From Escherichia coli (lineage in GTDB: Bacteria > Pseudomonadota > Gammaproteobacteria > Enterobacterales > Enterobacteriaceae): a DNA stretch of 64,000 nt. Both the position numbers and the translations under genes were made by a program. The stretch is taken from NCBI RefSeq assembly GCF_003790525.1, contig NZ_CP033635.1. One strand, given 5' to 3'. Positions 12,158 through 24,626 of this stretch are shown piece by piece. How positions within the stretch are numbered: position 1 is the first letter of the stretch; each line of letters opens with the position of its first letter. The notes below the pieces were generated by a model. That model had not been told where the DNA came from, made no database searches, and saw only the letters and a list, made by a program, of their open reading frames with translations.

Positions 12158-12322
12158 ATGGCAAAGCCGATCATCACGCTCAATGGCCTAAAAATCGTCA
12201 TTATGTTGGGAATGCTGGTCATTATTCTCTGCGGTATCCGTTTTGCCGCCGAGATCATCGTGCCGTTTATTCTCGCATTATTTATTGCTGTTATATATAA
12301 CTTATTTCGCTTAACTAATTGA
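12158..12322 (+). pseudogene. tqsA: tqsA 5' fragment (AI-2 exporter). The first ~46 codons are native, then 8 island-encoded codons and a stop.
   Basis: [45 protein letters not shown] matches the remembered TqsA N-terminus. The frame leaves tqsA sequence at 12294/12295. Confidence 0.9.
12286..12294 (+). repeat. attL core (TGCTGTTAT)
   Basis: Identical 9-mer at 23720..23728. The two tqsA halves rejoin in frame across it (..[11 protein letters not shown]..). Confidence 0.8.
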
Positions 12323-12365
12323 TTTAATTAAATAATTTGCACTACAAAAAGTGCCAAAAATCGCA

Positions 12366-12423
12366 AATTAACTACACCATTAACTACACCGTTCGGCGCA
12401 CTGTATGAAACAACGTGGAACAA
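12366..12423 (+). repeat. Arm module, left end: AATTAACTACACC ATTAACTACACC, then 19 nt, then ACAACGTGGAACAA
   Basis: The same two-part module recurs in the same orientation at 23567..23624, next to int. Probable arm-type Int/RDF binding sites. Confidence 0.6.
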
Positions 12424-13466
12424 ATAGACACAAGCGGCAGGCTATACCGTTATCATTTTTCAGCTATCCGTCATGAAGCTGGTGGATGATCACGGATAAC
12501 CAGGCATCTACAGCGCCTTAAAAAGCTGAACCCGACAAACATTTCTGCTTATCGGGTCCGATCGCTCTTTCTACTCGTGGCAGATGAGTTTACTAGGAAG
12601 GGGGGAACATTGTATCAGGCTATCCCCTTTCTGTGCTGATTCGGCTGGTGAATGATCTACTTGGGGCACTACACTTTTCGGATAGTGCGGGTATCCGGTT
12701 TTCTGCCTCATCGAATTTTAAGCCTTCTGACGGCCTGTATATCATTTCCTGTGGAGTTGCCGCCCTGATAGCGAATACTGCGGCAGCATGTGATTTACCC
12801 CCCGTTCTGTTGATGTTTGATGTGGCTGGTTGATGTGCTGCCATGTTTTCCGCCAATGGTGGAAAAGCCCACCAGCGCAACGCAGGACGCATAAAACCAT
12901 TGCGATGACTCTGGACGCAAAACCACGTTTAACGATGTTTTGCACTGAACCAGAATACTGTTCGTTTTTGTCTCGATGTCCGTACGTATTACGTCCGCAC
13001 CTAATCCGGCATCATGCCCACCAGCGTAACGCATTTTTTTAATTTCGTGGCTGTGCGTCCACCAGCTACGCCGGAATGGGGTATTCCGTTTCAACGGAAC
13101 AGGTATGACGAACATAATCGCACCTTCTCCCGAAAACGGTGCGACCTGCATCATCGAAATGGTGATTCAGCTACTCGGCGATTTTCACCATTCAGAATCT
13201 GGCGGGTGAGTTATCCAGCTTCCACCAATGGGGGATTCTGGAACAATCAACGGGTTACGCCTTATCAGCAAAAAAGCACATCAACTGTAAAGGAAATCGT
13301 TATGGTTGCTGGTGGGCTGCGTCACCATCATGGTGATGATGCTGTCCAGTCAGCCGGAACGGTTGAACAGGGTGGCTATGGGTCACTCTGTTGTGCGTTA
13401 TTTGCGTGATCCTGGTACGGGGTGACTATCTTTCAGATAGTCGGTTGCCTGGTTACACGAAAAAAT
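12424..13466. other. ORF-poor, Chi-rich segment at the integrase-distal end of the island
   Basis: Only short, mutually overlapping ORFs (131 aa or less) in all six frames. Five Chi octamers: + strand at 12478 and 13308; - strand at 12869, 13018 and 13059. 18-bp direct repeat GCCCACCAGCG(C/T)AACGCA at 12867 and 13016. Confidence 0.6.
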
Positions 13467-13838
13467 TTACTTCCTGCGTTTATCCTGCTTTGTATGCCCG
13501 TGCTGAATGCCCCGCAGTGGATCTTCTTTTTTCAGGTCGATCCCCATGTCCGTTAGTGTTTTTGTGGCGGCGGTTCTTATGGCACAAATCAGGTCTCTTT
13601 CCGGTTCCCGGGTTATGGTTGCCTTCCGGATGCATGCCGTTCGTCGTTCCGTTACATACTGACGCGCTTCATCACTTGCCGCCTGTTTCAGTAACTCACC
13701 CCAGCGATTAGCCGCCCGTCGCCATAAACCTTTCGCTTCCAGTTCTTCCGCTTTGTCATCATGCACCATAAGCATAATCCCATTGATACCTGTTAACTCT
13801 GAATGGTTGGTTTCTGTTCTTTTGATAATTTCCCGCAT
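13467..13838 (-). CDS. PerC-family transcriptional regulator (copy 2)
   Basis: Core MVHDDKAEELEAKGLWRRAANRWGELL is the PerC/Pch signature and parallels the paralog at 17352..17624. The internal ATG at 13769 (100 aa) may be the true start. Confidence 0.7.
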   Translation of the reverse strand: MREIIKRTETNHSELTGINGIMLMVHDDKAEELEAKGLWRRAANRWGELLKQAASDEARQYVTERRTACIRKATITREPERDLICAIRTAATKTLTDMGIDLKKEDPLRGIQHGHTKQDKRRK

Positions 13839-13840
13839 AG

Positions 13841-13872
13841 CTTATTGTATGACAGTACTGTCCCACAATAAG
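13841..13872. promoter_or_regulatory. 32-bp nested palindrome in the divergent perC2 / orf96 control region
   Basis: CTTATTGTatGACAGTACTGTCccACAATAAG. Overlaps the aaggag RBS of the 13884 ORF. Confidence 0.5.
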
Positions 13873-13883
13873 GAGTTGCACGC

Positions 13884-14174
13884 ATGAGAATGACTAGGCA
13901 CAAAAAACAGATTCTTGAACTCTACAAACCTGAGTATCGCGATTGGGTGCGGGTGGAGGCCGGAGATCCGCCTTTTGATGTTCGTGGTGTGACAGTGCTG
14001 CTCTATGGTTCCGAATATCGGCGATATCACATAGAGGCAACACGAAGGACGCTAAACGCTATGGTTCGTGATAAGTTGCTGGAGCGTGTGAAAGTCCGTG
14101 AGCCACGTTTTGATGTGCGTATTGGTGGCGATGGTGCGCATTGCACGGTAATCCGCTATGGCCTGGTAAGGTAA
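13884..14174 (+). CDS. Hypothetical protein, 96 aa (island cargo)
   Basis: ATG preceded by aaggag. No family recognised. Confidence 0.6.
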   Translation: MRMTRHKKQILELYKPEYRDWVRVEAGDPPFDVRGVTVLLYGSEYRRYHIEATRRTLNAMVRDKLLERVKVREPRFDVRIGGDGAHCTVIRYGLVR

Positions 14175-14204
14175 GCCATCGGGTAAATCAGATGATTAAA
14201 TCAC

Positions 14205-14226
14205 CAGAATGTAAATTTACATTCTG
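14205..14226. terminator. Perfect 22-bp palindrome between convergent ORFs
   Basis: cagaatgtaaatttacattctg. No clear T-tract. Confidence 0.4.
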
Positions 14227-14276
14227 CCAGCCACCAGCTACCCTCCTCAAAATTGAGGACCCTTTTTATCAACTGG

Positions 14277-14558
14277 TTACCGCCGCAACCGTTCCGGCTT
14301 CTTCCACTGATAAGTGTTTTTCGCGCTCTCCTGATACATCGCCACGCGTCGACGGTATGCCAGCAACTCTAGTACTCTGATTCGTATGTCGCGCATATCC
14401 ACGCCGTTAAGCTCAATACCATCACGGCGCATTACATCAGCAACAACACGCACATAATTTTCGGCGGTCACGCTGTCCGGCTGCGTGGCCTGTTCGTCAT
14501 GCTGCTGGCTGATTCCGGTAACGCGGCGGATTAATCCCAGTAGTTCGACTTCTGTCAT
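14277..14558 (-). CDS. Hypothetical protein, 93 aa
   Basis: Track ORF 14277..14756 runs through the cos/cosB DNA. The internal ATG at 14558 (MTEVELLGLIRRV...) lies just past cos copy 1. Confidence 0.55.
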   Translation of the reverse strand: MTEVELLGLIRRVTGISQQHDEQATQPDSVTAENYVRVVADVMRRDGIELNGVDMRDIRIRVLELLAYRRRVAMYQESAKNTYQWKKPERLRR

Positions 14559-14591: not shown

Positions 14592-14656
14592 CGGGTCCTT
14601 TCCGGCATGTGGACCCGTTACGGGGCGTCGACCTCGCGCGTTTTCACTATTTATGA
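14592..14656 (+). other. Lambda-like cosQ-cosN, copy 1; predicted 12-nt cohesive end GGGCGTCGACCT at 14623..14634
   Basis: GGGTCCTTTCCGG..CCGTTACGGGGCGTCGACCTCGCGCGTTTTCACTATTTATGA closely parallels my recollection of lambda cos (..GGGTCCTTTCCGGTGATCCGACAGGTTACGGGGCGGCGACCTCGCGGGTTTTCGCTATTTATGAAAA). Confidence 0.8.
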
Positions 14657-14672
14657 AAATTTTTCGGGATCC

Positions 14673-14769
14673 ATGTCCGGTTTCTCTGCAAGTTAACCAT
14701 ATGAAAAATATAAAAACATGCTTTCCATGAACCGGACATGCGCAAAAAACAGACACTAAAACCGGACAT
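14673..14769 (+). repeat. cosB-like array: three AACCGGACAT sites (14673..14682 inverted, 14730..14739, 14760..14769) around an A/T-rich spacer
   Basis: Position just after cosN, and the one-inverted plus two-direct layout, mimic lambda R3-I1-R2-R1 with a different site sequence. Confidence 0.6.
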
Positions 14770-14837: not shown

Positions 14838-15272
14838 TTACTGTTCTGTATCGGCTGATTGCTCCATGCTGGCACGGCGAACGCTTACGGCATGACGCCA
14901 CCCAGCCAGAAAGCCAGCCATTTTATTTCGTGCCTTGCTCACATCTTCCGGTGAATAGCCGTAAATATGCAAACCTTCATCAAATCGATGTTCTGTTTCT
15001 TCACTGGAGTACTCGTCACGCTCAGATGAAAGCAGCCTCGCAAACATAATTTTTTCCAGCGCACTGGTTTCTACGTGATATCCGATGGTCTGAAGATGGC
15101 TTTTACCTGAATACCAAAGCAATGTATGCCCGATGTGATAACCGCCAGACTTTCCGCGATCCGCATTAAGATACGGCATCCCCTGTTTGGTCCATGCGCG
15201 AATAGTGGTTCTGTTAACCTTGAAATGTTCAGCTATTTCCTGCTGACTTACAAAACAAGCTTTATCAATCAT
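14838..15272 (-). CDS. Nu1-like small terminase / packaging-specificity protein (N-terminal wHTH)
   Basis: VSQQEIAEHFKVNRTTIRAWTKQGMPYL aligns by eye with lambda Nu1 VNKKQLADIFGASIRTIQNWQEQGMPVL. Starts 67 nt downstream of cos copy 2, the lambda cos-Nu1 arrangement. The C-terminal half is not recognisably Nu1-like. Confidence 0.75.
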   Translation of the reverse strand: MIDKACFVSQQEIAEHFKVNRTTIRAWTKQGMPYLNADRGKSGGYHIGHTLLWYSGKSHLQTIGYHVETSALEKIMFARLLSSERDEYSSEETEHRFDEGLHIYGYSPEDVSKARNKMAGFLAGWRHAVSVRRASMEQSADTEQ

Positions 15273-15339
15273 AATGTTACCTTAACTGCATGGTTAAATA
15301 TCAATCAAGTGGTGGTGGTGTCACCTTCACGGAAAAACG

Positions 15340-15404
15340 TCATAAATAGCGAAAACGTGCGAGGTCGACGCCCCGTAACGGGTCCACATGCCGGAAAGGA
15401 CCCG
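15340..15404 (-). other. Lambda-like cosQ-cosN, copy 2 (inverted); cohesive-end sequence at 15362..15373
   Basis: Reverse complement of 14592..14656 with 2 mismatches in 65 nt. No AACCGGACAT sites between it and the Nu1-like start. Confidence 0.8.
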
Positions 15405-15429
15405 CAAAAAAAGCCGGATTTCTCCGGCC
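15405..15429 (-). terminator. Rho-independent terminator after the capsid operon
   Basis: Minus strand reads GCCGGA-gaaa-TCCGGC followed by TTTTTTT. Nearly identical hairpin at 17322..17345. Confidence 0.7.
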
Positions 15430-15502
15430 TTGTCTCAGATGGTTTTCAGTATGCGATAGATGTCGCCGTCATCGCCCTGGTTTGTGCCATCGTTCCCCCT
15501 GC

Positions 15503-15838
15503 TTATCGGGCCAGCGGCTGAACGGATACGCCGGAACCCGCAAAGGCGGCGCATTTTTTCGCATCGGTGTCGACGCTCTCAGGCCAGTTAACGGCGGCAA
15601 TATTGAATATCCCCGTCTTGTAACACTGTGCTGATTTCTGCTTTGACGTGTCCACAGGGTACGAGGTCAGATAAACAGCCTTGCCAGATTCCTTACCATC
15701 CCACGCCTTAAACTCGCCATTGTCTGCCAGCATCAGCGGGGTAAATTCCTGAATAACGCCAGCATCAGCGGCAAAATGTACCAGCGTCGTGGATACCTGT
15801 TGGCTGCCTGAAAATAACTCAATGTATGGAGCGTCCAT
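15503..15838 (-). CDS. Head decoration protein (lambda gpD-like)
   Basis: 111 aa. TPLMLADNGEFKAWDG and AAFAGSGVSV parallel gpD TPLMLDTSSRKLVAWDG and TAFAGTAISIV. Confidence 0.8.
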   Translation of the reverse strand: MDAPYIELFSGSQQVSTTLVHFAADAGVIQEFTPLMLADNGEFKAWDGKESGKAVYLTSYPVDTSKQKSAQCYKTGIFNIAAVNWPESVDTDAKKCAAFAGSGVSVQPLAR

Positions 15839-15849
15839 AGAATCCCCCG

Positions 15850-16905
15850 TTAAGCAATTTTGACGGTAACAAATTTGCGAATATCTGCCGGTACAGGCTG
15901 CGGTGCGCTGTGCGTCTGCACGTACTCAATCGCCGGATCGCCGTCCTCAATCCAGTTTTTCGGGTAGTACATGTTTTGCGTTGCGCCCGTTCTTACCGCT
16001 TCCTGATCCATAATCGCACCATATGCCACCAGCCCTTTATTGTTGGTGTTACCCAGGACCAGCAAATCAGGCTCAAGGAAATATTTTTCGGTCCCGTCGC
16101 TGTCAGTGTATTTGCCGGAATAGACGATAAGGGCCAGATCACCAAGATAGCCTTTAAAGCTCACCACTTCGCCCAGGTTTTTACAGGCCAGCTCGGCGGC
16201 GGATTCTGATCCACGGGAAAGATCGTACAGTTCACGGAATTTTTTAAAGCTGCGTAATGTGCGCCATACCTCACCGCCCATAATCATGACGTTGGCGGGG
16301 CAACCTGCCTGATCAGCATAAAGCTCGATGTCATAGATTGGGTCGTGCATGTCTTTATCCTGCTGGGACCATTTTTTACCACTGGCCTGCTGTATGATGC
16401 AGTTTTCCGGTATTTTCCAGTCGATTTCATAGCGTTCTATGCCTTCGCCCTCAATGATGTTTTTTCCGGTCGTTACCGCATTCACCGCCAGCCATTCCAC
16501 GCGCGCCTTAATGGCGTTTATCTGGCGGCGCATGTTGCCAGTAATCAGGCGCATACGGCGGTAAGTTGGATCGTTAAGCTGTGCCGGATCTTCTCCATCC
16601 ATGCGCATGATGGTCTTTGTTGGATCGATTTCGTGCTTTGGCTTCATGTAGCCTGGTTTAATCGTGCTGGTTTCGTACCCTTTATCGCGCTGGACCTGAC
16701 TACCCACCATAGGAGAACAGAACGCTGACATCGTAACCTCTTCAATGTCCAGGGTGTCCAGCATGATGTTTTGGGTGTTGAAGGTCGCCACGTTCGGGAA
16801 AAACAGCGTGGTAAACAGCGGACTAAATTTATATTCCGAAATATCCCCGCGATTCAGGTACGCGAAAAGCTGGTTAGTTGTAAGTGCCTTTGCTTTGCCT
16901 GTCAT
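15850..16905 (-). CDS. Major capsid protein (lambda gpE family)
   Basis: 351 aa. PGYMKPKHEIDP and YYPKNWIEDGDPA parallel gpE PGYVKPKHEVNP and RYPKNWVTTGDPA. Confidence 0.9.
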   Translation of the reverse strand: MTGKAKALTTNQLFAYLNRGDISEYKFSPLFTTLFFPNVATFNTQNIMLDTLDIEEVTMSAFCSPMVGSQVQRDKGYETSTIKPGYMKPKHEIDPTKTIMRMDGEDPAQLNDPTYRRMRLITGNMRRQINAIKARVEWLAVNAVTTGKNIIEGEGIERYEIDWKIPENCIIQQASGKKWSQQDKDMHDPIYDIELYADQAGCPANVMIMGGEVWRTLRSFKKFRELYDLSRGSESAAELACKNLGEVVSFKGYLGDLALIVYSGKYTDSDGTEKYFLEPDLLVLGNTNNKGLVAYGAIMDQEAVRTGATQNMYYPKNWIEDGDPAIEYVQTHSAPQPVPADIRKFVTVKIA

Positions 16906-17321: not shown

Positions 17322-17345
17322 TAAAAAAGCCGGATTGCTCCGGCT
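17322..17345 (-). terminator. Rho-independent terminator after perC copy 1
   Basis: Minus strand reads AGCCGGA-gcaa-TCCGGCT followed by TTTTTT. A plus-strand hairpin with a T-run sits back-to-back at 17286..17317. Confidence 0.7.
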
Positions 17346-17351
17346 GTGTGC

Positions 17352-17624
17352 TCACTTCTGCGGGTAGTTGCGCCATATTGCTTTGCCAATACCAGCTATC
17401 CCCATTTGTTTTTCAGTGCGATTAACTGACCTTTTCAGAGCGCCTAAATCATCCGGCGGCTCCGGTGGCCTCTGTGCCTTACGGATACATTCCGCGCGAC
17501 GCATTGCCACCTGTTCGCGCTCCTTGTCTGTCTCCACCAGCCTCATAACTTCACCCCATCGCGCCGCCGCCCTCCGGTAAAAGCCTTTTGCCTCGAGTTC
17601 CTCCGCTATGCGGTCATGTACCAT
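17352..17624 (-). CDS. PerC-family transcriptional regulator (copy 1)
   Basis: 90 aa from MVHDRIAEELEAKGFYRRAAARWGEVM. Start is 11 nt after the ssb stop with a ggggg RBS. Track ORF 17352..17744 overlaps ssb. Confidence 0.75.
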   Translation of the reverse strand: MVHDRIAEELEAKGFYRRAAARWGEVMRLVETDKEREQVAMRRAECIRKAQRPPEPPDDLGALKRSVNRTEKQMGIAGIGKAIWRNYPQK

Positions 17625-17634
17625 CGTCACCCCC

Positions 17635-18045
17635 TCAGAACGGAATATCATCACCGTAAGGGTCATCGCCTCCCGCTGGTGGCTGATTACCCTGTGTGCC
17701 TGTGGTTTTGCGTCTGTTCCCGCCAGGACGTGCCGCACGGGCACTGATTACGCTGTCTGCAATAACCTGCCAGCCCTGCCGCGTTTCCCCGTTCTGTCCG
17801 GTCCACTGGCTGACCTGCATCGTGCCGGATACGCTGGCAACGTCGCCTTTTTGATGTTTAGCCAGAAAGTCGGCCTGTTTGCCAAATGCGATGACCGATA
17901 ACCATAACGTCGCCTGTCCGTCCTGTGCCTGGCCGCATGGTAAAGATACCGCCATACGCGCCAGCGTCATCGGTGTACCCTTACTGGTCTGTTTTACCTG
18001 CGGGTCGTCCACCAGCCGCCCGTAAGCTGCTATCTGTGCTGTCAT
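17635..18045 (-). CDS. ssb: Single-stranded DNA-binding protein
   Basis: 136 aa with an OB-fold N-terminus, a Gly/Pro/Gln linker and the acidic tail DDIPF. Confidence 0.85.
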   Translation of the reverse strand: MTAQIAAYGRLVDDPQVKQTSKGTPMTLARMAVSLPCGQAQDGQATLWLSVIAFGKQADFLAKHQKGDVASVSGTMQVSQWTGQNGETRQGWQVIADSVISARAARPGGNRRKTTGTQGNQPPAGGDDPYGDDIPF

Positions 18046-18284
18046 GCTGTCTGCTCTCCGGTTTTAACGTTGATGGTTGTTACCTGTTCTGCTTCGGCAA
18101 TATCCCGCTCTGTCAGCGTGGCAAAGTTTGCCGCCGTCGTTGTCATGAATGCGCTTATCAGTTCGGGATGTGCTTTCGCGTATCCTTCCCCTGTGTTGCG
18201 GTCGATGATTTTTATCGCCACCCTCAGCCAGTGCTCTGTAAGGTCAATGGCGCGGTGATCTGTCTTTTTGTGGCTTACCTTCAT
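18042..18284 (-). CDS. Hypothetical protein, 80 aa
   Basis: ATGA overlap with the ssb start. No family recognised. Confidence 0.6.
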   Translation of the reverse strand: MKVSHKKTDHRAIDLTEHWLRVAIKIIDRNTGEGYAKAHPELISAFMTTTAANFATLTERDIAEAEQVTTINVKTGEQTA

Positions 18285-18287
18285 GAT

Positions 18288-18656
18288 TTACTCCAGAGTA
18301 CCGCTATTGCTGCTGTCGTTAACCGGATACCAGGCAAATACCATCGATTCACCACAGTGAACAAACTTCTTATCCGGCAGATAAAGGCACTCGCACATTC
18401 CCTCATCAGGACTATGCGGACTCATGCCCAGCTCACTGGTCAGCACGGGTAAGATTTCGCGGCAGGTGTTCCCCGCACCGAAATAATCAACCTCACAAAG
18501 CGCCCATGCAGCAATCGGGCTGTACCATTCCGTGCCGTCGTCGTCTTTGAACTTAGCCCACCAGCCAGGAAGGGCAGTTGATATGCTCAGTGTTTCAATT
18601 TCAGTGTTCATAAATTTACCTTCGGTATTTTGTCCTGCTGTTCGATTTTTATTCAT
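18288..18656 (-). CDS. Hypothetical protein, 122 aa (alternative start at 18611)
   Basis: First gene downstream of the iteron region. No family recognised. Confidence 0.6.
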   Translation of the reverse strand: MNKNRTAGQNTEGKFMNTEIETLSISTALPGWWAKFKDDDGTEWYSPIAAWALCEVDYFGAGNTCREILPVLTSELGMSPHSPDEGMCECLYLPDKKFVHCGESMVFAWYPVNDSSNSGTLE

Positions 18657-18660
18657 TGCT

Positions 18661-18860
18661 CACCATCTCTCACTTTTACTACTCACTTTTTAAAGCGTCT
18701 CGCTTCGTCTCACTTGAGATTTTTGTGTTTTGTATGTGCATGTTTCATAAGTGTTTTTTCACTGCTCACTTTTGAGCATGTATACAGGTGAGAAAGTGAG
18801 TAATTGTGTTAATATTTTGTAAAAACCTCACCATTACTCACTTTTACTACTCACTTTTTA
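18661..18860. repeat. Putative origin of replication: CTCACTT iterons flanking an A/T-rich core
   Basis: CTCACTT at 18669, 18682, 18709, 18765, 18837 and 18850, with an inverted copy at 18794. 32-bp direct repeat at 18661..18692 and 18829..18860. Immediately 3' of the initiator gene. Confidence 0.7.
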
Positions 18861-20264
18861 CAGTGGTCCTACATCATCACCATCAATGTAAATCACGGCG
18901 TCTTTTTCCAGTTTGGCTAACCATCGCCGCATATTTTTCACGTCATACCCAAGCCGTTTCATGTCATCACGTAACAGCGGGATCGTGCACTTGTCGCCGT
19001 TCTGTGTGCGTGAACGGATGCACCCCCATAGCGCGGTATGGTTTTCCGTCTTGTTGCCTGCCTCCTCGATGCGCTCCAGTTCAGCAGGGGCGCGGGGAAC
19101 GTCAATCACCACCATGGACACAATTTCTTCGCCATCTGTATCGGTGAACACCTCCACGCTTTTAAGGTCGTATGCACTCTCTTTTGGCTCCTCTGCGTCC
19201 TTCATCTTCGTACACGCCGCAACCAGTGCTGTAACGTCTGAATTTTCCCTGCTGATTCGGTACTCTGCATCAAGCGCGGCACGGAATGCACTGGAACCAC
19301 GCGCCCCCTTTGTTTCATCCTTGCCGGAATGGTGAACCACCAGCACCGTGGCCCCTGTGGCCTGCTTTATCGCGTCACACCCCTGGATAAATGCGCCCAT
19401 ATCACGGGAATCATTTTCATCATTCCCACCAAAGCAACGGGCCAGCGTGTCGATCACAATCAGCCGCACATTTTCGCCCGTTCTGCTCTTAACAAGTCCG
19501 GCAGTCCTGATAACCTGCTCCACATAGTCAGGCGATGCAGGGAAAACAGGCGCGTTAATGATGCACAAATCTGTAACCACCTTGTCGTGGGTTATCTCCC
19601 ACGCCTTAACGCGGCGTTTTACGCCCATGCTGCCTTCACCAGCGATATAGATAACCGCACCCTTACTTACCCTGCGGCCTCCCCATGCCATACCTGTGGC
19701 AACATGGCACGACCAGGAAATGGCGAGGAACGATTTATAAGAACCGCTGGCCCCGTAGGTGCTGCATAATGACTCAGCCGGAATAAGCCCCTTAATGACG
19801 TAGCTTTGCTGCGCATCGAATCCCTCAGAACCCCATGAGATGGGAAGTGTGATTTTTCGCTTTCCGCCATTCATGACCAGGCTTTCCCCTCTCTCCCATG
19901 TTTCCCGTAGTCGTGGTAGCTGGTCGCTCCAGTCCTCCAGCAGTTCGAAATTTTCAGAAAGTAGCCGCGCCTCCTGGACTCCGGCGATCGCCAGTTTTGT
20001 GGCAATGGTCAGCATCTGCATATCGTCCAGGTTTCCGGCGCGTATGACCTTTACCCTGTATCGTCCTTCATCAACAATCTGTAAGTTGTCCAGTTCGCTT
20101 AACTGATAACGGCCCAGATAAACCGGAGGGATGGGATCGCCTGCTTTTTTGGCCTGTGCAATCATGTAATGTTCTGCAAAGGAGTGAGCATTATCACCCG
20201 CAAAAATAACCGCCTCAGTGTGTTTATCTTTCGGTAACAGTTTTACGTTCGGTGCAAGTTTCAT
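18858..20264 (-). CDS. Replication initiator, RecA/DnaB-like (AAA_25-type) ATPase with a C-terminal wHTH; Pri-Rep analogue
   Basis: 468 aa. Walker A GASGSYKS, Walker B LIVIDTLARCF, VLVVHHSGKDETKGARGSSA. Confidence 0.8.
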   Translation of the reverse strand: MKLAPNVKLLPKDKHTEAVIFAGDNAHSFAEHYMIAQAKKAGDPIPPVYLGRYQLSELDNLQIVDEGRYRVKVIRAGNLDDMQMLTIATKLAIAGVQEARLLSENFELLEDWSDQLPRLRETWERGESLVMNGGKRKITLPISWGSEGFDAQQSYVIKGLIPAESLCSTYGASGSYKSFLAISWSCHVATGMAWGGRRVSKGAVIYIAGEGSMGVKRRVKAWEITHDKVVTDLCIINAPVFPASPDYVEQVIRTAGLVKSRTGENVRLIVIDTLARCFGGNDENDSRDMGAFIQGCDAIKQATGATVLVVHHSGKDETKGARGSSAFRAALDAEYRISRENSDVTALVAACTKMKDAEEPKESAYDLKSVEVFTDTDGEEIVSMVVIDVPRAPAELERIEEAGNKTENHTALWGCIRSRTQNGDKCTIPLLRDDMKRLGYDVKNMRRWLAKLEKDAVIYIDGDDVGPL

Positions 20265-20548
20265 TTCTTACCCCCTGCGACCAGCATTTCACGGATTTTG
20301 CGGATATAACTTGCAGCACGTTTCTGATTAACGGCTTTACGATGGCCCACCAGCGTGAAATCACGCCGGAACTGATAAACAGGCATAACGCAGTCATATT
20401 CGTAGCCTTCACGGCGGTAAGTGATGCGACGTTCCTCCACGCCCTTAATCATTACCGTGCCGCCGTAGTTATCACGGAAAATATCGCCGGGACGGATTTC
20501 AGGACGAGCGGGGCCGCTGGCATTAACGCCAGAATTTTTATTTTTCAT
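20261..20548 (-). CDS. Small conserved phage/satellite protein (DUF4222-like by recollection)
   Basis: 95 aa. ATGA overlap with the initiator start. Confidence 0.6.
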   Translation of the reverse strand: MKNKNSGVNASGPARPEIRPGDIFRDNYGGTVMIKGVEERRITYRREGYEYDCVMPVYQFRRDFTLVGHRKAVNQKRAASYIRKIREMLVAGGKK

Positions 20549-20553
20549 GTTTT

Positions 20554-20781
20554 TTATTCTCCGGTGTGCTGTTCTTTATATCTGTCGTGAATTGCCATCA
20601 CTGTATTTAATTCATTAATAACAGCCGTTAATAGCGTACGCACGGCAGAAAACATCATTGAATCAGATTCATCGCCACTTTCCTGCACATCAATTAAATT
20701 AAGTAGTAATGCGTCCATTTCCTTTGCGCGGATTAATGCCTTTTCACAATGAAAAATAACACCAAAGGGTATTTTATTCAT
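20554..20781 (-). CDS. Hypothetical protein, 75 aa
   Basis: ATG at 20781 overlaps the icd-like stop (ATGAATAA). Track ORF starts 14 codons earlier. Confidence 0.55.
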   Translation of the reverse strand: MNKIPFGVIFHCEKALIRAKEMDALLLNLIDVQESGDESDSMMFSAVRTLLTAVINELNTVMAIHDRYKEQHTGE

Positions 20782-20971
20782 GACTCCCCTCCTGACGGAT
20801 ACGGGCGGCGAATACAGCGACACAACCGGACGGGCAACGGTTACGCGCTTCGCGTTCCGTCCAGGCGGTCACGTGGATAATTTGAGATTCTCCGGCACTC
20901 AGTGCCAGAAAACGCCACACAAAGGCGGTTTGTGTGTGCGCTAGTCGTGGGGTATGCTGTGTTCCAGCCAT
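20774..20971 (-). CDS. Icd-like (P4 host cell-division inhibitor-like) protein, 65 aa
   Basis: MAGTQHTPRLAHTQTAFVWRFLALSAGESQIIHVTAWTEREARNRC..VFAARIRQEG fits the remembered Icd-like pattern. aggag RBS. It forms the C-terminal part of the implausible 308-aa track ORF. Confidence 0.65.
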   Translation of the reverse strand: MAGTQHTPRLAHTQTAFVWRFLALSAGESQIIHVTAWTEREARNRCPSGCVAVFAARIRQEGSHE

Positions 20972-21056
20972 AATCGTTACTCCTGTTAACGGTTTGGTTA
21001 GACGCCCTGCATGTGTTACAGCACTGCGGGGCGTTGTCTTTTTAACGGCTTTCGTG

Positions 21057-21104
21057 ATAGGGTGTACACCTATCAAGCAAAAACATAACGCTATAGGTGT
21101 ACAC
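21057..21104. promoter_or_regulatory. Operator-like sites sharing TAGGTGTACAC in the divergent icd / RHH control region
   Basis: ATAGGGTGTACACCTAT (21057..21073, near-palindrome) and ATAGGTGTACAC (21093..21104, abutting the RHH ATG). The minus-strand TTGACA hexamer overlaps the RHH start. Confidence 0.5.
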
Positions 21105-21299
21105 ATGTCAACAGTTATTAAGCGAGATAAAAAACCAAAGGGAACAGGAAAAGCCCCCCCATTCCATATGCGAATAGCTCCAGAACTGAAAGAGCAGTTT
21201 GATAATGAGGCCAGCAATGATGGGGTAAGCCTAGCCAACTGGCTTAAAGAGTTGGGGCGCGCCGAACTAAAGCGACGCGGCATTGAACCTAAAGGCTGA
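21105..21299 (+). CDS. Ribbon-helix-helix (Arc/CopG/HicB-antitoxin-like) DNA-binding protein, 64 aa
   Basis: FHMRIAPELKEQFDNEASNDGVSLANWLKELGRAELKR is a typical RHH fold signature. Opposite strand to the rest of the island. Confidence 0.7.
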   Translation: MSTVIKRDKKPKGTGKAPPFHMRIAPELKEQFDNEASNDGVSLANWLKELGRAELKRRGIEPKG

Positions 21300-21302
21300 T
21301 GT

Positions 21303-21428
21303 ATGACTGAAAAGCAGACCGATAACAAACTTTCTCTACCAGAGAATAAACCAGCAGGCTTCTTACCAAGAAAAATCCTTGATGAGATCAAACGCCGCCA
21401 GCGCCGCAAGGCCAAAGAGCAGGAATAG
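21303..21428 (+). CDS. 41-aa basic micro-protein, co-oriented with the RHH gene
   Basis: ATG 4 nt after the RHH stop. MTEKQTDNKLSLPENKPAGFLPRKILDEIKRRQRRKAKEQE. Followed by a terminator. Confidence 0.4.
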   Translation: MTEKQTDNKLSLPENKPAGFLPRKILDEIKRRQRRKAKEQE

Positions 21429-21459
21429 CCCACCAGCAAGCCAGCACACTGATCACATT

Positions 21460-21488
21460 GGCCACCGTGACAGGTGGCCTTTTCTTTG
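21460..21488 (+). terminator. Rho-independent terminator of the RHH operon
   Basis: GGCCACC-gtgaca-GGTGGCC followed by TTTTCTTT. Confidence 0.7.
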
Positions 21489-21540
21489 CCCGTTATCCGG
21501 CAATTGTGGCGCTTCGCCACACGGTTGATATAATTCCCCT

Positions 21541-21611
21541 GCTCAGATTCATTTTTTGCGCGGCAGGTAAATTGTTCAGAAAGGCGGCTCCTTATCGGGG
21601 CCGCTTTTTTT
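21541..21611 (+). ncRNA. Candidate ~70-nt small RNA, antisense to the alpA-to-icd leader
   Basis: Extended -10 TGaTATAAT at 21526..21534. Hairpin plus T7 terminator at 21580..21611. No ORF. Confidence 0.3.
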
Positions 21612-21752
21612 ATGTCTGAAAAACCGCGATTTTGTTGTTTTTCAGTTTCACCAGGCCGAACGAAGCCCCGCCCATGTTCGGGCGTATATCCAGTCTTCAT
21701 GGTTAAATCTCTGTATTAGTGGATGGGTGGCGGCTGTGTGCCGCCAGTCTTT

Positions 21753-21941
21753 TTAGTGAACTGCCTCGCAGCTTTCCTTCCATGCCAGAACTTCGGATAA
21801 AGACCAGCCAACGGAACGACCGCCCAGCTTACGCCGTGATGGGAATTGTCCGGCCTTTTCCAGGCGGTAGCGGCATGAGCGGCTAAGGCCTGTTAGCTTT
21901 TCGCATTCTTTTTCACGTATAAAGCGATCAGTGCTTAACAC
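21753..21941 (-). CDS. alpA: AlpA-family (MerR-like HTH) phage regulatory / excision-control protein
   Basis: 62 aa, GTG start. REKECEKLTGLSRSCRYRLEKAGQFPSRRKLGGRSVGWSLSEVLAW is the AlpA signature. Confidence 0.8.
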   Translation of the reverse strand: MLSTDRFIREKECEKLTGLSRSCRYRLEKAGQFPSRRKLGGRSVGWSLSEVLAWKESCEAVH

Positions 21942-22100
21942 TATTGCCCCCTTTCGTTTCTTAAAGAGTTATTTCGTGTTCTATTGCGTTGGGATGTGTC
22001 TGATTGTGTCAGGGTGATTCAGAGTTGGCAAATGTTGGTGGCGGGTATTTTACAGAAACGGGGTGATTTTAATAAAAATCATTTTAATTCAGTATTATGC

Positions 22101-22133
22101 AAAGGCATAAAATCTCGTTTTATGCCTTTTTTC
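22101..22133 (+). terminator. Strong hairpin plus T-run in the int-alpA spacer
   Basis: AAAGGCATAAAA-tctcg-TTTTATGCCTTT followed by TTT. Confidence 0.55.
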
Positions 22134-22233
22134 TCACTATTTAAAGCGTTATTCGCTAATGTATAAAAAACCAGTTGAGCATTAAAAATCAGCAACTTAT
22201 AAATCTGTATACTTTTTGACCTCTTGTTCGTGG

Positions 22234-22267
22234 TTGTTTCACGTTGTTGTGTATTGTTGCACGTTGT
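22234..22267 (-). repeat. Two more ACAACGTGNAACAA motifs (22234..22247 and 22254..22267), 20 bp apart
   Basis: Same 14-mer as in both arm modules (12410 and 23611), here in the opposite orientation just downstream of int. Confidence 0.5.
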
Positions 22268-22315
22268 ATCTGTGCACTTATCCAGTATGCGCATACTGAA
22301 AAAACACGAAAAAAA

Positions 22316-23566
22316 TTATTTTCTTCTGGCTACTGGTAGCGTGGTTACGTTTTCATGTGCTCCCGCCAGTATCTCCAACCGCTCCACCCACATATCCAGC
22401 GCATTGCGTTTCGCATCCAGATAACGGGAATGATTATAAACTCGCTGCATTCCTGGCATCTGGTGGCCTGTAAGCTGCTCCACGACGTGAGGATCCACGC
22501 CTAAATCGTTCAGCATCGTTGTAAAGGTGCGCCGGATGTCATGCAGTGACCATTGAGGGTGTTTTAGCCTCCTGTGCGCTAATCTGCCGTACTGCGATAC
22601 GCTGGCCTCCTGTTTCACTTCCCCCAGTAATAAGCCCGTGTGCCTGTTCTGCTCCACCAGCCGCGTGACGAACGGCAGGATCGCTTCCGGTATGGGCCGG
22701 AATATTGCGACCTTCGTTTTGCTGTGCTCCTTCGGAACGGTCCAGAGCATTTCCGTGAAATCCCACTCCCCGATCTCCGATAACCTCAGTTCTACCGTCC
22801 TGGCTCCGAAGACAATCAGGAGGCGGATTAGTGCGACGTAGTAAGGGGAAAATATTTTTTTGTCCAGTGCCTGCAATAATTCGCCCAGTTCTTTGGTGCT
22901 TAAGACACGTTCGCTTATATCCGGTTTTTTCCCAACGTCCGCCACGTTCAGATCGTCCAGAACGTTGCTGATTGCATAGCGCCGCCTCCGGCAAAACTTA
23001 AGCGCCTGTTTGCACGCCTGTAGCACGAATCCGGCAGTAACAGGCGTTCGCTTTGCCACCCGATCAAAACAGGCCAGCCAGTGCCGTAGCTCGCATTTAT
23101 CCAGCGGCATAGCACCAATGTGCTGTATTACGTGATTATTAAGTCGCCTTTTCAGGGCGATATAATCCACGCGGTTTTCCTTTACGTAAGACTCAAGCCA
23201 GTAGGTGAGCGCATCTCCAACCGTTACAGGCTTTAACGCTTCCTGCATGGTGTAATTCATCTCATGACGTGGATTTTTCCCCTCAGCCAGCCATGCGCGA
23301 CACTGGGCGGCTTTTTCCCTGGCTGATTTCAGGCTCAGATCAGGATAATTTCCCAGCTTAATACGTTCCGGTCGTGTCTCTCTTCCCGTTCCGGCCCTGT
23401 AAGTGAAATACCAGGTTAAAAGGCCGCTGGTTGAATGCCTGACGCTCAGATTTCCACCGTCATTAAGAAAGGCTGTTTTTTGGGCGGGTGTGCCGTTGAT
23501 TTTCCTTAGCTGTGTATCGCTCAGCTTGTTAAGTGCTCTGGTCATAATTTTGAATCCGGTCATCAC
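22316..23566 (-). CDS. int: Tyrosine recombinase, P4-type integrase (N-terminal arm-binding domain plus catalytic domain)
   Basis: 416 aa. LSDTQLRK N-terminus, catalytic HDIRRTF...GHQ..MQRVYNHSRY. Alternative start at 23545. Confidence 0.9.
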   Translation of the reverse strand: MMTGFKIMTRALNKLSDTQLRKINGTPAQKTAFLNDGGNLSVRHSTSGLLTWYFTYRAGTGRETRPERIKLGNYPDLSLKSAREKAAQCRAWLAEGKNPRHEMNYTMQEALKPVTVGDALTYWLESYVKENRVDYIALKRRLNNHVIQHIGAMPLDKCELRHWLACFDRVAKRTPVTAGFVLQACKQALKFCRRRRYAISNVLDDLNVADVGKKPDISERVLSTKELGELLQALDKKIFSPYYVALIRLLIVFGARTVELRLSEIGEWDFTEMLWTVPKEHSKTKVAIFRPIPEAILPFVTRLVEQNRHTGLLLGEVKQEASVSQYGRLAHRRLKHPQWSLHDIRRTFTTMLNDLGVDPHVVEQLTGHQMPGMQRVYNHSRYLDAKRNALDMWVERLEILAGAHENVTTLPVARRK

Positions 23567-23624
23567 AATTAACTACACCATTAACTACACCGATCGTTGC
23601 ACAAAGGGCTACAACGTGAAACAA
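23567..23624 (+). repeat. Arm module, right end (AATTAACTACACCATTAACTACACC, then 19 nt, then ACAACGTGAAACAA)
   Basis: Begins 1 nt upstream of the int start codon. Direct repeat of 12366..12423. Confidence 0.6.
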
Positions 23625-23728: not shown

Positions 23729-24626
23729 TCTTAACCCGCTGGTGCAACACATGGTCCGCTGGCGAGTGCCGCGTGTACTGGCGGTGTCGATTTTGATGAC
23801 CATCATCGTGATGGCGATGGTGTTGCTGTTAGCTTATCTGGGTTCCGCGCTCAACGAGTTGACGCGGACGTTACCGCAATATCGCAACTCTATTATGACG
23901 CCGCTGCAAGCGATTGAACCGTTGTTGCAACGCGTAGGGATTGATGTCTCAGTTGACCAACTGGCGCATTACATTGATCCGAACGCGGCAATGACGTTGC
24001 TCACCAACTTATTGACGCAGTTATCTAATGCCATGTCATCAATCTTTTTATTGCTGCTGACGGTGCTGTTTATGTTGCTCGAAGTGCCACAATTGCCCGG
24101 AAAATTTCAGCAAATGATGGTGCGTCCGGTTGAAGGGATGGCGGCGATTCAGCGTGCGATTGACAGTGTGTCTCATTATCTGGTGCTGAAAACAGCCATC
24201 AGCATCATCACCGGCCTGGTCGCCTGGGCGATGCTCGCCGCACTCGATGTTCGCTTCGCTTTTGTCTGGGGATTGCTGGCCTTTGCGCTTAATTACATCC
24301 CTAATATTGGTTCAGTTCTCGCGGCAATCCCCCCTATCGCTCAGGTACTGGTGTTTAATGGCTTCTACGAAGCGTTGCTGGTGCTGGCGGGATATCTGCT
24401 AATTAATCTGGTCTTCGGCAATATTCTGGAGCCGCGCATCATGGGACGTGGGCTGGGGCTTTCCACATTGGTGGTATTTTTGTCGTTGATTTTTTGGGGA
24501 TGGTTGTTAGGACCGGTGGGTATGCTGCTTTCCGTGCCGTTAACAATTATTGTCAAAATTGCGCTTGAACAAACAACGGGAGGTCAAAGCATCGCCGTTC
24601 TGTTAAGCGATCTCAACAAAGAGTGA
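23720..24626 (+). pseudogene. tqsA: tqsA 3' fragment (codons ~44 to the end). A 294-aa ORF from GTG 23742 stays open.
   Basis: ..[26 protein letters not shown].. continues the remembered TqsA sequence. In-frame TAA at 23715. Confidence 0.9.

Follow-up and report, generated by a model that had tools for sequence, protein, structure and literature searches.

A probable RppA allele between two inverted cos sites in a phage-inducible chromosomal island of Escherichia coli

Rpp proteins of cos-type islands

The closest described relatives of the locus considered here are the 'redirecting phage packaging' (Rpp) proteins of Gram-negative cos-type phage-inducible chromosomal islands (PICIs). The locus is an open reading frame (ORF) at 14838..15272 on the minus strand of a 64,000-nucleotide stretch of the Escherichia coli contig NZ_CP033635.1 (assembly GCF_003790525.1), and this whole stretch is referred to as the window. 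Judged by its sequence, the ORF is very probably an allele of RppA. The name RppA was given to the product of c1503, a protein of 144 residues encoded by the island EcCICFT073 (Fillol-Salom et al. 2019, PMC6739421). In that study RppA alone blocked phages lambda and phi80 and spared HK97, and the mutations by which phages escaped RppA mapped to the small terminase subunit TerS (V3I, A55V, E65K and others). Two-hybrid assays showed that RppA binds TerS and forms homodimers, and island transfer was lowered by deletion of rppA or by the TerS escape mutants (PMC6739421). In the presence of RppA, the transfer of plasmids carrying a phage cos went down and that of plasmids carrying the island site cos1 went up. 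Among chimeras with exchanged cosB, a response to RppA was given only by the cosB of cos1, and phi80 carrying this cosB became RppA-dependent (PMC6739421). Deletion of terS in phi80 abolished the transfer of EcCICFT073, indicating that helper TerS is required. For lambda- and phi80-mediated transfer of EcCICFT073 it was cos1, not the second island site cos2, that was needed, and deletion of cos2 raised lambda-mediated island transfer.

The structural basis of this redirection has been described for RppC. Its fold has six helices plus a beta hairpin. Residues 1-64 form a winged helix-turn-helix (wHTH) that can be superposed on the DNA-binding domain of lambda TerS, and residues 65-139 form three helices (alpha4-alpha6) which dimerise via a coiled coil of alpha6 (PMC6739421). 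In the complex of RppC with TerS(1-98) (6HN7), the Rpp DNA-binding domain replaces the second TerS domain, giving a TerS-Rpp2-TerS assembly. The L51D substitution abolished TerS binding, F121R abolished homodimerisation, and R21A/T22A kept interference with loss of the promotion of cos1 packaging (PMC6739421). RppA and RppC are ~44% identical, the residues of their C-terminal coiled coil are poorly conserved, and no RppA-RppC heterodimer is formed (PMC6739421). No domain or conserved segment for binding the large terminase subunit TerL is recognisable among Rpp proteins (Murialdo & Feiss 2022, PMC9026076). The RppA identity and its packaging role are therefore already known, the genetics and the crystal structures having been published in 2019.

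The rpp gene product and its relatives

The gene and the two domains of its product are the following.

14838..15272, minus strand: rpp gene, very probably an RppA allele, 144 amino acids plus stop (ORF and RppA identity)
15081..15272, minus strand: N-terminal wHTH DNA-binding domain, residues 1-64, a probable mimic of the TerS DNA-binding domain (Nu1 alignment; limits from the RppC structure)
14841..15080, minus strand: C-terminal helical domain, residues 65-144, predicted to serve homodimerisation and further TerS contacts (aligned to RppC alpha4-alpha6)

The ORF starts with ATG, with AAGG sitting 8 nt upstream, and its 144-aa product is identical at 138/144 positions (96%) to the equally long CFT073 protein C_RS07025 (WP_000565609.1). 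C_RS07025 was equated with c1503/rppA because both the RppA sequence printed in Fig. S1C of PMC6739421, which begins MIDKACFVSQQEIAEHFKVNRTTIRAWTKQGMPYLNADRGKSGGYHIGHT, and the published delta-c1503 knockout primer match the window ORF, the primer at its 3' end. The 1.3 kb surrounding the ORF is 94% identical to E. coli CFT073, within EcCICFT073. In the PDB, phmmer matched residues 2-125 to RppC ("Redirecting phage packaging protein C", 6HLK/6HN7), with an E value of 4e-32. Together with a 16-sequence family alignment, these matches give homology to the Rpp family over the full length of the protein. An earlier sequence-only reading of this gene had proposed a protein of the Rpp type which heteromerises with helper TerS, and in view of the identity to RppA this proposal was correct in kind, the mechanism having been published in 2019. 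The translation quoted in that reading was reproduced.

All RppA residues that have been probed by mutation (R21/T22, L51 and F121) are kept in the window protein, as are R25 and K29. Over 16 family members, R21, T22, T23, I24, R25, W27, T28, K29 and F121 were invariant. The homologue search returned 17 relatives in Escherichia, Klebsiella, Phytobacter and Salmonella; it missed RppC, so this figure understates the extent of the family. The nearest homologue cluster (97% identity) comprises 229 member sequences, all unnamed or 'hypothetical'. The rpp gene itself is labelled 'hypothetical protein' in RefSeq; such labels arise because neither Pfam nor NCBIfam holds an Rpp model. The identification is of value for annotation, as islands of this kind, packaging module included, are missed by routine pipelines.

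A Nu1-like wHTH had been read by eye at residues ~8-55, and this was borne out by BLASTP, Pfam, PHROG and phmmer (residues 8-56). Pairwise BLASTP with lambda Nu1 gave 15/49 identities (31%) over residues 8-55, at an E value of 7e-7 for a single comparison, and no alignment past residue 55. The Pfam profile Phage_Nu1 (PF07471) reached 16.6 bits at residues 8-56, under its 30-bit cut-off, and of its 164 profile positions only 3-52 were covered. Residues 7-54 were matched by PHROG 57 ('terminase small subunit') at E=1.1e-8, and the chains of the lambda TerS DNA-binding domain (1J9I, 6HN7_B and 7LW0) were found in the PDB by phmmer at E about 0.015-0.025. The likeness to Nu1 needs pairwise or profile methods, because a tblastn search with lambda Nu1 over the 64 kb window did not report the rpp ORF at E<=10. 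At the sequence level, the resemblance is weak but reproducible and appears confined to residues 8-56.

The C-terminal ~90 residues showed no similarity to Nu1, either by BLASTP or in a multiple alignment with the TerS proteins of lambda, phage 21 and PhiR12, in which no conserved C-terminal block was present. By phmmer this part aligned with RppC helices alpha4-alpha6, the homodimerisation coiled coil of RppC, in agreement with the earlier view that it does not resemble the Nu1 self-assembly and gpA-binding region. A lambda-type TerS (PF07471) is not indicated: the family score, the C-terminal oligomerisation/gpA-binding region and an adjoining terL gene were all lacking. As had also been noted, the large terminase gene is absent; in the window neither TerL nor a canonical TerS was found below E=0.2 when the lambda and PhiR12-type proteins were used as tblastn queries, and Pfam and PHROG scans found no terminase gene among the island ORFs.

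The comparison with known profiles and structures, which the sequence-only reading had put forward as a check, was successful in part: the sequence match to RppC 6HLK was obtained, and modelling by AlphaFold2 followed by Foldseek did not recover that structure. The AlphaFold2 model, made from the 16-sequence alignment, was of low confidence (mean predicted local distance difference test score, pLDDT, of 56; predicted template modelling score of 0.38). It contained six helices (10-17, 21-29, 47-62, 71-84, 91-103 and 108-143) in an RppC-like order. When this pLDDT-56 model was compared with the PDB by Foldseek, the best match was a wHTH of MntR/MerR type at E=0.48, which is not significant, and 6HLK was not retrieved.

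By homology with the experiments on EcCICFT073 RppA and on RppC, the following mechanism may be proposed for the window allele. Rpp would homodimerise by its C-terminal helices, and each of its wHTH domains would replace one TerS DNA-binding domain, giving a TerS-Rpp2-TerS complex with a small terminase of the lambda/phi80 type. The hybrid DNA-binding pair would miss the phage cosB, and helper packaging would be blocked. The complex would instead recognise the island cosB in cos1, directly upstream of rpp, by way of the recognition helix of Rpp (R21/T22). Helper TerS would, by hypothesis, supply the TerL-binding domain that Rpp is without, and helper TerL would then nick the island cosN and package island concatemers into helper capsids.

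The two cos sites and the alternative readings

The site upstream of rpp and its associated features are listed below.

15273..15404, minus strand: cos1, predicted RppA-responsive site, with cosQ, cosN GGGCGTCGACCT at 15362-15373 and a non-phage cosB (aligns with CFT073 cos1; Fig. S1A)
15309..15326, minus strand: proposed R3-PICI AGGTGACACCACCACCAC, candidate Rpp site, bp 48-65 of cos1 (position proposed by Murialdo & Feiss, PMC9026076)
15406..15433, minus strand: intrinsic-terminator-like hairpin with U7, between the decoration gene and cos1 cosQ (RNA fold -19.1 kcal/mol, z=-3.2)

As in the described PICIs, rpp lies directly downstream of an island cos which combines a phage-like cosQ and cosN with a non-phage cosB. 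Counted from the left cohesive end of cos1, at 15373, the rpp ATG falls at bp 102; a cos-rpp layout with the ATG at this position was described by Murialdo & Feiss 2022 (PMC9026076). CFT073 has the same R3-PICI sequence, AGGTGACACCACCACCAC, as the window. At 15297-15324 on the minus strand a match to a sigma-70 type of promoter was observed (GTGACA, 16 nt spacer, GATATT), with its -35 hexamer inside R3-PICI. The promoter scan was a consensus match only, with 4 sites in the scanned region against 1.9 expected. Because the promoter-like -35 hexamer overlaps R3-PICI, Rpp might autoregulate its own gene. The hairpin at 15406-15433 is GC-rich, and an 89%-identical copy is found at 17323-17349, after the PerC gene. 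It was not listed by a consensus terminator scan, and was spotted by eye and supported by folding. As this hairpin and its U7 lie between the decoration gene and cos1, rpp may be transcribed separately from the capsid genes.

An inverted repeat flanks rpp, with arms of 78 nt at 14592-14669 and 15327-15404 which are 91% complementary, each containing cosQ and cosN GGGCGTCGACCT. The arm on the far side belongs to cos2, which points towards the 3' end of rpp.

14592..14769, plus strand: cos2, inverted relative to cos1, with cosQ, cosN at 14623-14634 and a phage-type cosB (equals EcCICFT073 cos2, Fig. S1A; PhiR12_1 match)
14673..14682, plus strand: cos2 repeat ATGTCCGGTT, bp 51-60, lambda R3 position (kept in PhiR12_1, IAI39 and CB9615)
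14730..14739, plus strand: cos2 repeat AACCGGACAT, bp 108-117, lambda R2 position, inverted relative to the first repeat
14760..14769, plus strand: cos2 repeat AACCGGACAT, bp 138-147, R1-like; island-phage similarity stops just past it

Exactly three exact copies of AACCGGACAT were found, at 14673-82 (minus), 14730-39 (plus) and 14760-69 (plus). For reference, the R3 core of lambda is at bp 53-67 and R2 is at bp 109-120. When one mismatch was allowed over the whole window, 4 sites were found against 3.9 expected, which is not above chance. The case for the repeats rests on the three exact copies in 97 bp, their lambda-like R3/R2 placement and their conservation in phages.

Over a stretch of 179 bp, cosQ to third repeat inclusive, the cos2 site was 94.4% identical to the cos of the lambdoid phages PhiR12_1, _2, _2_star, _4 and _5. 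In PhiR12_1 this cos region lies between Rz and the Nu1/A/W/B head operon, and in prophages of E. coli IAI39 and O55:H7 CB9615 the cosB of cos2 is found directly upstream of the terminase small and large subunit genes. In the alignment, island and phage hardly differed between the cohesive end and the third repeat, past which they diverged at once. The cos of CB9615 was more divergent, with substitutions between the repeats and none in the repeats. The TerS associated with this cos is identical in PhiR12_1 and IAI39; it is a canonical protein of 169 aa, followed by TerL. With lambda Nu1 it shares 46% identity over the 92 C-terminal residues, but no alignment to Nu1 is obtained for the N-terminal DNA-binding domain, and there is no meaningful similarity between this TerS and Rpp. 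Since the same cosB directly precedes the gene of this TerS in the phages and prophages, the most economical reading is that the AACCGGACAT repeats are probably the R sites of the PhiR12-type TerS class. They belong to the cosB of the inverted cos2, a near-exact copy of the cosB of this other lambdoid class, and lie outside the RppA pathway.

Alternative roles for the protein were weighed on this evidence. The sequence-only reading had packaging retargeted to the island AACCGGACAT sites, which would mean that Rpp, alone or with helper TerS, targets the three repeats as island-specific R sites. Their number and exactness, their R3/R2-like positions at bp 51-60 and 108-117 from cosN, and their location within about 70-165 bp of the rpp 3' end would all fit such a role. 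However, the repeats belong to the cosB of cos2, and RppA-dependent plasmid transfer was seen only with the cosB of cos1; transfer mediated by lambda or phi80 likewise needs cos1 and not cos2. The repeats are also present in phages and prophages without rpp, whose cos carries them directly upstream of the resident TerS gene. Targeting of the repeats by Rpp is largely refuted by the published cosB swap and is considered very unlikely. The protein might otherwise be a shortened, stand-alone small terminase of the island which recruits helper TerL without helper TerS, as its Nu1-like wHTH and the cos directly upstream, an arrangement like cos-Nu1 of lambda, could suggest. This is hardly credible, as the Nu1 C-terminal oligomerisation/gpA-binding region has no match in the protein, no conserved TerL-binding segment exists among Rpp proteins, and island transfer is lost when TerS carries escape mutations that prevent its binding to Rpp. 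The stand-alone TerS was rejected on the absence of island transfer with a terS-deleted helper. The direct recruitment of helper TerL, which had been left as an option by the sequence-only reading, is contradicted by the same phi80 terS deletion and by the lack of a TerL-binding domain in Rpp.

Next to no probability is given to a regulator or excisionase of the MerR/BldC/Xis type, unrelated to packaging. Pfam did report HTH_17, MerR_1 and HTH_36 at E about 0.002-0.01, all below cut-off, NCBIfam HTH_BldC scored 17 bits against a cut-off of 77 bits, and some autoregulation is conceivable from the promoter-like -35 hexamer that overlaps R3-PICI. However, the regulator matches cover only a helix-turn-helix of ~25 residues and it is Rpp that matches over the full length, an AlpA regulator is already present in the island, and the published genetics give packaging phenotypes to rppA. 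A MerR/Xis-like regulator was rejected on this full-length match and on the packaging genetics.

The RppA-like redirecting role is accordingly preferred for the window protein, and several points weigh against it. The experimental data concern the CFT073 allele and RppC, and not the window allele (PMC6739421). The window rpp differs from CFT073 rppA by 7 nucleotides, of which 6 are non-synonymous and 1 is synonymous, and the resulting substitutions are S54Y, R59H, E61Q, A62T, R64G and Q102H. Five of these fall within residues 54-64, at the C-terminal end of helix alpha3. In the RppC contact tables, residues 63-64 of alpha3 are placed against the partner alpha6 in the homodimer interface, and contacts with TerS are listed for residues 47 and 51. 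With six substitutions, partner affinity or helper range could differ from those of RppA. In addition, given the poor AlphaFold model, the structural assignment would depend on sequence homology to 6HLK only, and R3-PICI is a proposed, candidate Rpp binding site only. Residues 54-66 were the most variable stretch over the family alignment, and the variability at 54-64 hints at diversification of partner specificity, in numbers too small for a test. The cluster at codons 54-64 may have arisen by diversifying selection, or by recombination over a small patch, in a region of dimer or TerS contacts.

The balance tips slightly towards an island that is 'bilingual' for helpers. In such an island cos1 and RppA would hijack terminases of the lambda/phi80/21 type, and cos2 would let phages of the PhiR12/IAI39/CB9615 type package the island directly, without Rpp. 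If true, this would explain the retention of two inverted cos sites, would broaden the range of predicted helpers, and with it the routes for transfer of island cargo in pathogenic E. coli, and would define a further packaging-specificity class among lambdoid phages. Of 5426 complete E. coli genomes, 225 carry the cosB of cos2 (114 bp). The window island and EcCICFT073 show 100% identity in this cosB, whereas the surrounding 1.2 kb is only 94% identical. In the strains PKF11 and PKF4, the genomes nearest to the window, a second site of the cosB2 type is present. In the published accounts of the EcCICFT073 cos sites, no phage cosB was identifiable and the origin of cos2 was not discussed. A literature search found no relevant description of PhiR12 phages or of cos2 function, and cos2 in PICIs appeared only in the 2018 and 2019 papers. 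What may be new in the present analysis is solely the probable phage origin of the cos2 cosB.

Some further observations concern the cos sequences. The annotated R boxes of phage 21 hold CATGTCGG / CCGACATG, one base off the core of the cos2 repeat (CATGTCCGG / CCGGACATG). The DNA-binding domain of phage 21 TerS is lambda-like and unlike that of the PhiR12-type TerS, and a TerS of the 21 type has been ascribed to the native helper of EcCICFT073. Both cosN sites in the window read GGGCGTCGACCT, with T at position 6, compared with GGGCGGCGACCT in CFT073, lambda, phage 21 and PhiR12. Between the two arms, the spacers that separate cosQ from cosN resemble each other more closely in the window than in CFT073. 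The T shared by both cosN sites and the likeness of the spacers suggest gene conversion between the inverted cos arms. Matches of >=99% to the cos/rpp region were found in only three complete E. coli genomes.

The island and its comparison with known systems

The island is ~11.4 kb long, is of the int-alpA-replication type, and splits a gene of the AI-2E transporter family. The two halves of this gene correspond to profile positions 1-48 at 12158-12322 and positions 52-344 at 23742-24626. The other genes of the island are as follows.

17352..23566, minus strand: PerC-family gene, single-stranded DNA-binding protein (SSB), AAA_25 replication protein, DUF4222, AlpA and tyrosine integrase (Pfam)
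15503..16905, minus strand: head-decoration (D-like) and major-capsid (E-like) genes, upstream of cos1/rpp (Pfam HDPD 4e-17, Phage_cap_E 2e-49)
14277..14558, minus strand: 93-aa ORF downstream of cos2, homologue of CFT073 C_RS07030 (PHROG 1561; CFT073 annotates a 93-aa coding sequence)

The island holds a PICI gene set, with integrase, AlpA, replication protein and SSB and no terminase. A 26-nt exact direct repeat, AATTAACTACACCATTAACTACACCG, was observed at 12366-12391 and 23567-23592, just inside the island ends, and could be an attachment (att) or arm-type site. At the 93-aa locus, PHROG 1561 matches residues 67-159 of the longer, mechanically called ORF. The E-like capsid and D-like decoration genes were found in the island, and no portal, protease or scaffold gene was found there. 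The 2018 paper describes EcCICFT073 as being without capsid morphogenesis genes and as packaged in full-size helper capsids. The region at 12322-14277 extends beyond the CFT073-like module. It contains a second PerC-family gene (13467-13838), a 96-aa ORF (13884-14174) with no family match, and about 1.1 kb without a convincing ORF or Rfam match, and it is possibly accessory or decayed cargo. An Rfam scan of the whole island gave no match.

Among satellites of other bacteria, the Ppi (phage packaging interference protein) of the staphylococcal pathogenicity islands (SaPIs) is, like Rpp, a small satellite-encoded protein that binds helper TerS and blocks helper packaging. Ppi is not known to be related to Rpp in sequence, and SaPIs bring their own TerS for pac-type packaging, where Rpp would form a hybrid with helper TerS. 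With lambda gpNu1 (PF07471; 1J9I) the window rpp shares the wHTH and the position of the gene after cosQ-cosN-cosB. Unlike gpNu1, it is without the Nu1 self-assembly/gpA-binding C-terminus and without an adjoining terL, and Rpp dimerises via a different surface. The cos of PhiR12_1, IAI39 and CB9615 is near-identical to the window cos2, and the TerS proteins of these phages and prophages are unlike Rpp.

Closer relationships are found within the Rpp family. RppC of EcCIEC2733.1 (6HLK; complex 6HN7 with lambda TerS 1-98) has in common with the window protein the wHTH, R21/T22/R25/K29 and, by prediction, the three-helix C-terminal domain. RppA of EcCICFT073 (c1503; AAN79972.1 / WP_000565609.1) has the same length of 144 aa. 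The window island differs from EcCICFT073 in its integrase and replication module and in its insertion site, the AI-2E transporter gene as opposed to a position next to phoQ, and it lacks the 137-aa ORF C_RS07020 which in CFT073 lies between cos1 and the decoration gene. The order of decoration and capsid genes, cos1, rpp, cos2 and 93-aa ORF is the same in both islands, which are collinear from the capsid genes to the 93-aa ORF.

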